Positions 4,828 through 5,418 of a stretch of DNA of 8,520 nt are shown here, in pieces (position 1 is the first letter of the stretch; each line of letters opens with the position of its first letter). Position numbers and translations under genes: made by a program. The stretch is from a virus. Its lineage: Duplodnaviria > Heunggongvirae > Uroviricota > Caudoviricetes. The notes below the pieces were generated by a model. The model had not been told where the DNA came from, ran no database searches, and was given only the letters and a program-made list of their open reading frames with translations. The stretch lies in the IMG/VR virus record IMGVR_UViG_2534681654_000003, positions 1-8,520 of that record. The stretch is one strand, 5' to 3'.

Positions 4828-4856
4828 TTGATTTGTTTTGACGATCAAATTAGTAT
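4828..4856 (+). promoter_or_regulatory. Candidate sigma70 promoter for the 177-aa gene
   Basis: -35 TTGATT (4828-4833), 17-bp spacer, -10 TAGTAT (4851-4856). The predicted start (about 4863) falls inside the 5' arm of the hairpin at 4858-4884. The spacer contains the palindrome TTTGA-cga-TCAAA (4837-4849). CTTGATTTG also occurs at 4774-4782. Confidence 0.4.
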
Positions 4857-4857
4857 T

Positions 4858-4884
4858 GCCTCATCAACTGTATGAGGCTTTTTT
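4858..4884 (+). terminator. Intrinsic terminator-like hairpin abutting the start codon of the 177-aa gene
   Basis: Stem gcctcat (4858-4864) / atgaggc (4872-4878), 7-nt loop, then TTTTTT (4879-4884) and immediately the ATG at 4885. The 3' arm contains the only SD-like element (GAGG, 4874-4877). Confidence 0.6.
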
Positions 4885-5418
4885 ATGCAAACCAAAAGCT
4901 ACACCATCAAAGCATTTCAGGACTTCTTACAGATGCTTCCTGAGCTTGGTATCGTCAATGATGCTACAGCCCGCAATCTCCGTGACTCTTCCCTGCGCCT
5001 TCTTACTGTTCTTGGGTCGGATTTCACCGATGCCGATATCCGTGATTATAGCGTTGCCAACTTAGCAAGTTCGTACGCAGACTCAGCAGAAAGCAAACCC
5101 TCTGAATCATCTTTGCAGGCATACAAAAGCCGGATGCAAAGTGCTATTGATAAATTTATCTCCTACCAGAATGGTGAGATTAATGTGTCAGTTGGTGATG
5201 TAAATAAAAAAAAGGAGCGTAAAAAGATGGCACCTAAGAAGAAGGCGGTAGCTGACGTACAGGTTGGTGTAAAAACATTTGAACTGCCGATTCCATTGCG
5301 CGGAGATCTTATCGTCACCATTGGCAACCTGCCTCGCGACCTGACAAAAGATGAAGCCAAGCGTATCAGTCTGATTGTGGAATCTTTTGCGATGATTGAT
5401 GGCGGAACAAAAGAATAA
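4885..5418 (+). CDS. Hypothetical protein, 177 aa, with a lysine-rich central linker; accessory (moron-like) gene
   Basis: Intact ORF bracketed by hairpin terminators on both sides. Contains an A8 tract (5206-5213) and an in-frame internal AAGGAG-N9-ATG (ATG 5227, residue M115). No recognisable motif. Confidence 0.65.
   Translation: MQTKSYTIKAFQDFLQMLPELGIVNDATARNLRDSSLRLLTVLGSDFTDADIRDYSVANLASSYADSAESKPSESSLQAYKSRMQSAIDKFISYQNGEINVSVGDVNKKKERKKMAPKKKAVADVQVGVKTFELPIPLRGDLIVTIGNLPRDLTKDEAKRISLIVESFAMIDGGTKE

Follow-up and report, generated by a model that had tools for sequence, protein, structure and literature searches.

A promoter-overlapping hairpin at the start codon of a prophage cargo gene is a candidate 5′ insulator

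Why should a gene carry a terminator-like hairpin immediately ahead of its own start codon? The question is raised by an 8,520-nucleotide (nt) stretch of viral DNA, positions 1 to 8,520 of IMG/VR record IMGVR_UViG_2534681654_000003 (Caudoviricetes; hereafter the window), in which the ATG of a gene for a 177-amino-acid (aa) protein, phrog_2602, directly follows a hairpin and a run of six thymidines on the + strand. The original prediction held that the 3′ arm of this hairpin carries the ribosome-binding site of the gene, that a promoter starts transcription within the 5′ arm, and that the gene is thereby insulated from the immunity operon upstream. Of the explanations weighed here we find this mechanism the best supported, and we consider it probable, though well short of certain, that the hairpin insulates a mobile cassette of prophage cargo at its 5′ end. 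The leader of the gene comprises the following elements.

4828-4833, + strand: −35 hexamer TTGATT, inside the conserved CTTGATTTG, an invariant block in our leader alignments A2 and A4
4851-4856, + strand: −10 hexamer TAGTAT, separated from the −35 hexamer by a 17-nt spacer
4858-4864, + strand: 5′ arm GCCTCAT, with its anti-Shine-Dalgarno (anti-SD) sequence CCUC at 4859-4862; it covers the promoter discriminator and −1 positions
4863 (plausible range 4863-4865), + strand: predicted transcription start, A4863, from sigma-70 start-site rules
4865-4871, + strand: loop caactgt
4872-4878, + strand: 3′ arm ATGAGGC, holding the Shine-Dalgarno (SD) sequence GAGG at 4874-4877
4879-4884, + strand: U6 tract, at once the terminator tail and the SD-to-AUG spacer
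4885-5418, + strand: 177-aa gene, with its ATG at 4885

All of the predicted coordinates were confirmed on the sequence, the U6 tract ending exactly at the ATG, and GAGG, 7 nt ahead of this codon, proved to be the only purine-rich, SD-like run in the 20 nt that precede it. A single t separates TAGTAT from the 5′ arm. In a consensus scan the hairpin was classed as terminator-like on the + strand only, with seven pairs, four of them G-C, a loop of 7 and the tail TTTTTTAT; a bidirectional terminator was rejected, as the − strand is without a T-tail. Folded in isolation, the hairpin has a free energy of −10.1 kcal/mol (z = −4.0), equalled by 1 of 200 shuffles. The window holds 22 terminator-like sites where 8.8 are expected from shuffling, and because such sites are this frequent a single hairpin is weak proof, and its significance rests on comparison. 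That it stands above chance follows from its conservation, with covariation, in 13 further distinct leaders. A small RNA ending at the terminator was considered and dropped, since no upstream promoter was found for it and the conserved block 5′ of the stem is promoter-like, not RNA-like. Rfam covariance models run against 4300-6300 gave no credible match at E ≤ 1.

In the mechanism that we favor, transcripts entering from upstream (here from pRM/pRE, by way of cI and the DUF3024 gene) would carry both arms of the hairpin, such that CCUC at 4859-4862 pairs with GAGG at 4874-4877. Read-through from pRM/pRE would first meet a weaker hairpin at 4721-4742. In the window lineage, the leader hairpin with its U6 tract would then act as an intrinsic terminator just before the AUG, and any RNA that escaped termination would have its ribosome-binding site locked in the stem. 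The gene’s own putative sigma-70 promoter, TTGATT-17-TAGTAT (4828-4856), would instead place the anti-SD in the discriminator region. Its transcripts, beginning at about A4863, would lack the anti-SD and would thus form no hairpin, undergo no termination at the U-tract and present an exposed SD. Expression of the 177-aa gene would in this way depend on its own promoter, regardless of the upstream neighbors.

Homologous loci (identified below by L numbers) were gathered from IMG/VR, species genomes, metagenomes and exact-protein look-ups; a scan of species-representative genomes contributed only 3 of them. Fourteen leaders bear the hairpin: the window, L012, L038, L047, L004, L057, L019, L020, L022, L048, L051, L026, L050 and YP3. 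The 13 outside the window come from Escherichia, Serratia, Salmonella-type, Yersinia and metagenomic prophages, and across the set protein identity to the window falls to ~50%. Their layout consists of a CTTGATT −35 element, a 17-nt spacer, a TAnnAT −10 element, 0-2 nt, a CCUC/GAGG stem, 4-9 nt (4-7 in most) and the ATG. The 17-nt spacer is found in 12 of the 14, L050 having 16 or 18 nt depending on the choice of −10, and YP3 is exceptional in having a different −35, a consensus −10 and 5 nt between the −10 and the stem. Although the −10 sequence varies among homologues (TATTAT, TAATAT, TACTAT, TATCAT, TACCAT and TATAAT), its T1, A2 and T6 are retained in every leader bar the ambiguous L050, and these positions, together with TTGAT of the −35, are among the invariant columns of the intergenic alignment. 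Alignment A4, which covers the nearest lineages, is invariant at CGATC, CTTGATTTG, CGATC, TA..AT, CCTCA and GAGGCTTT.TTATG, whereas the spacers vary. The anti-SD starts 2 nt past the −10 in 13 of the 14 leaders. Stems range from 5 to 11 base pairs and loops from 3 to 16 nt, examples being GCCUCAU/AUGAGGC in the window, CACCUCAUA/UAUGAGGUG in L019, UUCCUCAUCAA/UUGGUGAGGAA in L026 and UUGGCUCAU/AUGGGCCAA in L050.

The composite is also specific to this gene family. The pattern CTTGATT-N17-TANNAT-NN-CCTCA matched 70 IMG/VR stretches, and GAGG and an ATG lie downstream of it in 20 of 20 family copies, compared with 2 of 50 non-family matches. The idea of a portable promoter-hairpin module standing before unrelated genes was rejected, because all true copies precede the 177-aa gene family. 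Judged from these counts, the promoter-hairpin composite is a lineage-specific feature of the cassette, and no chance consequence of the promoter motif.

What lies upstream is far less constant. The 177-aa gene and its smaller partner, a 44-aa open reading frame (ORF), stand behind cI in L038, L039, L042 and L043, behind the DUF3024 gene in the window, L047 and L040, behind dinI at the prophage end in L051-L054, and behind an unrelated coding sequence in Yersinia phage YP3 (L003); in L044 the pair is divergent from a dam gene. The upstream genes thus differ among homologues while the promoter-hairpin-ATG block is common to them, and this variety, together with a break in homology to phage 933W 120 nt upstream, indicates that the hairpin belongs to the downstream gene. 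Insulation of the gene is supported, but not a shield directed specifically at the cI operon, as originally proposed: the element follows the cassette behind cI, DUF3024, dinI and other genes.

These comparisons bear on the simplest competing explanation, in which the hairpin is the plain intrinsic terminator of the upstream unit, its overlap with the SD and the promoter is a by-product of tight packing, and the gene is expressed by read-through or is largely silent. The canonical anatomy with U6, the position downstream of a co-directional operon, and the presence of at least four uridines directly after the stem in 10 of the 14 leaders all accord with this idea. However, the hairpin accompanies the downstream gene whichever unrelated gene lies upstream, the positions of the −35 and −10 are invariant amid drifting spacers, and homologues devoid of the hairpin hold the same promoter at the same distance. 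The U-tract is degenerate in four lineages (L004, L020, L026 and L048), three of which (L020, L026 and L048) keep substantial anti-SD:SD pairing. In addition, the DUF3024 gene already has its own terminator-like hairpin at 4721-4742, weaker and common to 933W. A plain upstream terminator is therefore unlikely in our judgment. The same leaders qualify the claim that read-through is terminated or masked: because the U-tract is not kept in all lineages, termination is not a universal function of the element, and because three of the four leaders with degenerate tracts retain pairing, SD masking is conserved more widely than termination. In the window, termination is likely added to masking.

Whether a promoter-proximal transcript would escape the hairpin depends on where it starts. 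E. coli RNA polymerase initiates most often 7 bp past the −10 element, within a range of 6-9, and favors purines as +1 and pyrimidines as −1, while pyrimidine-rich discriminators such as CCT shift the start to position 9 (PMC5730371). The conserved CCTCAT places a C at position 6 and an A at position 7 past the −10, and by these rules the start is predicted at A4863, inside the 5′ arm and behind the anti-SD, as had been proposed. A start upstream of CCUC is implausible because it would fall 1-2 nt past the −10, where the sigma-70 holoenzyme does not start.

Folding of both transcript types in silico, suggested at the outset as a check, was carried out for 13 leaders, with read-through RNAs beginning 120 nt upstream or 1-3 nt past the −10. 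Accessibility was scored on GAGG alone, since a measure spanning −13 to −5 is diluted by the always-open U-tract. The probability that GAGG is unpaired was 0.00-0.02 for read-through RNA in 11 of the 13 leaders and 0.15-0.58 for RNA beginning 7 nt past the −10; in passing from the former to the latter it rose from 0.00 to 0.21 in the window, from 0.00 to 0.49 in L019 and from 0.00 to 0.58 in L026. The read-through RNA is already partly open in L004, which has a stem-breaking substitution, and in YP3, which has a long loop. The whole 62-nt short RNA of the window has a minimum free energy (MFE) of −6.1 kcal/mol, no different from shuffles. The SD is thus fully paired in the window’s read-through RNA and partly open in its promoter-proximal RNA, in line with the expected behavior.

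The predicted start also separates the favored mechanism from one in which the stem regulates the gene’s own mRNA in cis, for instance by repressing translation, by acting as an RNA thermometer or by binding a small RNA or protein, with transcription starting upstream of 4858 from some other promoter. SD-sequestering stems are common in 5′ untranslated regions, that of IS200 tnpA being an example (PMC4513863), and a stem selected as RNA is equally expected here, the start site at A4863 being a predicted one. Yet no sigma-70-like promoter was found further upstream within the cassette, and the stem follows the sole hexamers with a conservation footprint after 1-2 nt, a gap too short for transcription to begin upstream of the anti-SD. 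The tight packing of the stem against the −10 would also be left without a rationale. An mRNA stem of this kind thus seems to us a rather unlikely account, and we return to insulation by exclusion of the 5′ arm.

If the arms pair in RNA, their changes should be coordinated. An arms-only alignment anchored on the SD core (A3), which replaced a MAFFT alignment (A2) whose 3′ arms were mis-registered, contains five pairs altered on both sides. Its covariation score of 0.264 compares with 0.159 ± 0.023 in shuffles and was reached by 0 of 500; 76.3% of its cells are paired, above all 500 shuffles, compared with 35-52% in slid registers; and of the 91 cells of the seven central stem pairs, 87 are paired. 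U.G wobbles occur in L012, L048, L051, L050 and L026, where pairing is possible only in the + strand RNA. An RNA hairpin can be selected only if some transcript has both arms, and hence transcripts entering from upstream must matter.

The same data address the proposal that the inverted repeat is a DNA operator over the start site, bound by a dimeric repressor that could be the cassette’s own core-binding-domain protein. Such an operator would be well placed, with the palindrome at the predicted +1, CTTGAT/ATCAAG motifs repeated around the promoter, and a DNA-binding-type fold in the 177-aa protein. It should nevertheless have conserved half-sites at a fixed spacing, and these were not found: the arms are set apart by anything from 3 to 16 nt, and outside the SD core they show compensatory changes in place of sequence conservation. 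The U.G wobbles would, moreover, be mismatches in a DNA palindrome. Because of these + strand wobbles and the variable spacing, we conclude in favor of an RNA hairpin and hold a protein operator to be quite improbable. A chance hairpin without function, which might be entertained as ~9 terminator-like sites are expected per window from shuffling, can practically be dismissed in view of the z score of −4.0, conservation and covariation over proteins down to ~50% identity, and the rarity of the same downstream features among non-family pattern matches (2 of 50).

Several observations weigh against insulation as we propose it. The promoter is weak by consensus: TTGATT-17-TAGTAT matches 8 of 12 positions, below the scan threshold of 9/12, and was not called; it may need an activator. 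Alignment A3 was built by hand around the proposed structure, which biases its pair counts. The U-tract is not kept in L004, L020, L026 and L048, and the hairpin itself has decayed in L004 (−3.2 kcal/mol) and lost strength in L020. YP3, with 5 nt between −10 and arm and a 16-nt loop, could transcribe part of the anti-SD from the gene’s own promoter. The short RNA of the window forms a weak alternative helix, UGUAUGAG/UUUAUGCA, with G.U pairs, leaving GAGG only 21% unpaired. Finally, the association of the hairpin with a co-directional upstream gene is confounded by phylogeny.

This last point concerns the homologues that lack the hairpin and retain the promoter (L040, L042, L044, L045, L058 and L062). 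In the four whose leaders were measured (L040, L042, L044 and L045), 25-31 nt separate the −10 from the ATG, and there is no anti-SD. In L042 a separate, strong terminator immediately follows cI and the promoter matches 9/12 consensus positions, and in L044 the neighboring gene is divergent; both contexts fit the insulation idea.

Two further groups of leaders were observed. In the IMG/VR prophages L023-L025 (= L076, L084, L092), the promoter-hairpin leader is intact and the ORF is shortened to 121 aa, apparently by a frameshift. A clade of 39-41% identity (L005, L030-L037 and L063, and also VT2-Sakai and other Shiga toxin 2 (Stx2) phages) has a different leader, with a promoter-like TTGCGC-17-CATTAT preceded by three GATC sites, and an AGCUCUA/UAGAGUU hairpin immediately before the AUG holds the SD, AGGAGG, in its loop, with no anti-SD masking.

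The window itself corresponds to the immunity region of an Stx prophage of the 933W type; its + strand runs from cI to N, and its − strand carries cro, cII, an O-like gene and a DnaB-like gene. The features that surround the leader are listed here.

3586-4293, + strand: cI repressor (Pfam Peptidase_S24 and HTH_3)
3586-4695, + strand: upstream co-directional immunity operon, cI and the DUF3024 gene, 99% identical to the 933W cI region, where pM is annotated
4354-4695, + strand: DUF3024 gene (Pfam), with the 177-aa ORF downstream
4721-4742, + strand: first, weak terminator-like hairpin, GGTCGCA-gaag-TGCGGCT followed by TTTT (−9.8 kcal/mol, z −2.5), common to 933W
4738-5734, + strand: swapped-in 997-bp cassette, with promoter, hairpin, 177-aa gene, structured spacer and 44-aa ORF
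4812-4815: conserved GATC, within ACGATCG, ~13 nt upstream of the −35
4843-4846: conserved GATC inside the promoter spacer
5417-5445, + strand: terminator-like hairpin AAAGCCCCG-agggaa-CGGGGCTTT with tail TT/U5, at the 3′ end of the 177-aa gene (−15.3 kcal/mol)
5592-5726, + strand: conserved 44-aa ORF MAHDVNRDDFIYEHDKPVYVRSYCRIRFGELEHVRQHFRSYPSC, the second cassette gene, with a good SD
6233-6616: N

Comparison with phage 933W by blastn revealed 99% identity across 2805-4737 and 5735-7275. Between these flanks, downstream of cI-DUF3024, window positions 4738-5734 replace the block of 933W that contains a RuvC-like gene, stk and small ORFs. The 997-bp block recurs unchanged in phage SH2026Stx1 and a second Stx phage record; of 5426 complete E. 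coli genomes, 6 contain it in the same form. The break at 4737/4738 coincides with the 3′ edge of the 4721-4742 hairpin. Both cassette junctions were observed to lie at or beside hairpins, at 4721-4738 on the left and, on the right, at the annotated tM of 933W, which maps to ~5743-5764; junctions so placed (4737/4738 and 5734/5735) are consistent with module exchange at terminator-flanked boundaries. Transcription from pRM/pRE through cI and the DUF3024 gene is the presumed source of read-through into the cassette. The DUF3024 gene, which is also present in 933W, matches the PADLOC candidate defense family PDC-S43 (E 5e-42).

The hairpin may be less remarkable than the remainder of the cassette. 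The 177-aa protein belongs to a group of 53 homologous clusters in Enterobacterales prophages. Its N-terminal ~95 aa have the core-binding (SAM-like) fold of tyrosine recombinases, without the catalytic domain, and are followed by a Lys-rich linker and a nearly invariant C-terminal segment of ~45 aa. Searches of Pfam, NCBIfam and PADLOC returned no family for this protein or for the 44-aa protein. The hairpin at 5417-5445 is conserved and covarying, with a U-tail specific to the window lineage. Beyond it, an ORF of 44-45 aa follows the 177-aa gene in most loci with inspected gene calls; it is 59-91% identical among homologues and, in the more divergent loci, better conserved than its partner. 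In 7 of 8 comparisons the codon changes are more often synonymous than non-synonymous, which by this measure places the 44-aa ORF under purifying selection.

The ~170-nt spacer between the two genes (5419-5591) folds with an MFE of −73.7 kcal/mol (z −6.96), a value attained by 0 of 200 shuffles. Across 10 loci, compensatory changes occur in 10 of its 29 predicted pairs, with G.U wobbles that fit the + strand, and in the MFE structure the SD/AUG of the 44-aa ORF pairs with a conserved GGATAGCGGTTCTCC motif. The spacer, which is without an Rfam match, may be an undescribed cis-regulatory or non-coding RNA.

The promoter region has features of its own. A GATC lies near −73/−74 from the ATG in most of 23 leaders listed, the 39%-identity clade included. 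GATC density is 2-3 per 150 nt in most leaders, compared with ~0.5 in the surrounding loci, and the two sites of the window are 31 bp apart. By analogy with IS10, the paired Dam sites suggest a methylation-sensitive promoter, and the cassette promoter with its conserved GATC sites may itself be regulated. CTTGATTTG occurs as a direct repeat at 4774-4782 and 4827-4835, the second copy being the −35. Other lineages have 2-4 copies of CTTGAT/ATCAAG upstream of the promoter, and the repeat within the window alone is not above chance. A regulator, perhaps the cassette’s own protein, could bind at these copies.

Taken together, these parts invite a broader and more tentative reading, in which the hairpin belongs to an uncharacterized, self-contained 1-kb module acting as an RNA-containing exclusion or defense system or as a regulatory switch expressed from the prophage. 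The module would combine a Dam-rich promoter, the insulator hairpin, a DNA-binding protein with a core-binding domain only, a strongly structured RNA of ~170 nt that covaries and a well conserved 44-aa protein. Its expression would be set epigenetically or by autoregulation, and strict insulation would be needed because leaky read-through would be harmful. We regard this as conceivable but doubtful.

The principle of insulating a mobile gene against outside transcription is long established for the insertion sequences (IS) IS10, IS50 and IS200. For IS10/Tn10, protection from external promoters was reportedly described by Davis, Simons and Kleckner in 1985 (Cell 43:379, cited in PMC2965389 and PMC13181058). 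One level of this protection is a fold-back in which only RNAs initiated outside the element can mask the ribosome-binding site. The cassette resembles this ‘fold-back inhibition’ in that its own promoter is predicted to start inside or after the 5′ half of the inverted repeat, and in that, as folded in silico, only outside transcripts would fold back onto the ribosome-binding site and be translationally silent. As in IS10, the 3′ arm lies over the SD and the element is mobile, occurring in varied upstream contexts; the geometry for a start inside or after the 5′ arm, the start being a predicted one, fits 13 of 14 leaders. A Dam (GATC) site is likewise present in the IS10 promoter pIN (PMC5006887), and the cassette sites upstream of the −35 and within the promoter spacer may be likened to it. 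In contrast, the IS10 fold-back is not an intrinsic terminator and its gene encodes the transposase, whereas the cassette has a stem and U-tract abutting the AUG of a prophage accessory gene.

At the left end of IS200, a terminator at nt 12-34 protects against impinging transcription, transcription starts at ~nt 40, and a further stem sequesters the SD (PMC4513863; Beuzon et al. 1999, cited there and in PMC2965389). The cassette would share with it terminator protection at the 5′ end, an SD-sequestering stem-loop and, at a predicted site, an own start close by, which in IS200 lies just past the terminator. IS200 differs in using two separate inverted repeats, with the SD stem in its own mRNA, while the single hairpin of the cassette would do both and be absent from the gene’s own mRNA. 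Conserved 5′ terminators of transposase/IS genes have been named ‘mobile attenuators’ (Naville and Gautheret 2010; PMC2965389). That class was described for IS elements, and overlap of the terminator with the element’s own promoter or SD is not described there. What would set the cassette apart from the IS systems, as read from its sequence, is the prophage cargo that carries the element and the fusion of terminator, SD mask and discriminator in a single 27-nt unit.

The other relevant comparison is with the accessory genes of lambdoid phages. According to what Juhala et al. and Hendrix et al. are said to have proposed in 2000, ‘morons’ are accessory genes with their own promoter and a 3′ terminator, situated between conserved phage genes. 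Relative to 933W, the window likewise has a gene with a promoter-like site and a 3′ hairpin that is present or absent between 99% identical flanks, and, as far as such comparison can tell, the 177-aa/44-aa gene pair is a moron-like mobile cassette; unlike it, the moron definition includes no 5′ insulator overlapping the promoter. On the phage map the cassette lies between cI and pL/N, where lambda has rex and 933W has stk. In lambda, the internal promoter pLIT makes rexB expression independent of pRM. This rexB/pLIT/tImm arrangement was reportedly described by Landsmann et al. in 1982. The internal promoter of the cassette would likewise make its expression independent of pRM, but rexB is also expressed by pRM read-through and is not shielded from it. 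Our literature search found no paper mentioning the 177-aa protein, its PHROG or such an arrangement in prophages.

Because the principle is established in IS elements, its use here would strike a specialist as neat rather than surprising, and the design is small enough for reuse as a synthetic insulator part. For annotation, the proposed mechanism would mean that a terminator directly ahead of a gene need not imply silence, as the start of the transcript would decide whether it can be translated. If this mechanism is correct, compact 5′ insulators exist beyond insertion sequences, in prophage cargo cassettes too, and one element of 27 nt can serve as terminator, ribosome-site mask and promoter discriminator. 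It would also explain how the 177-aa gene keeps its own regulation wherever recombination places it, even behind a constitutively transcribed repressor gene.

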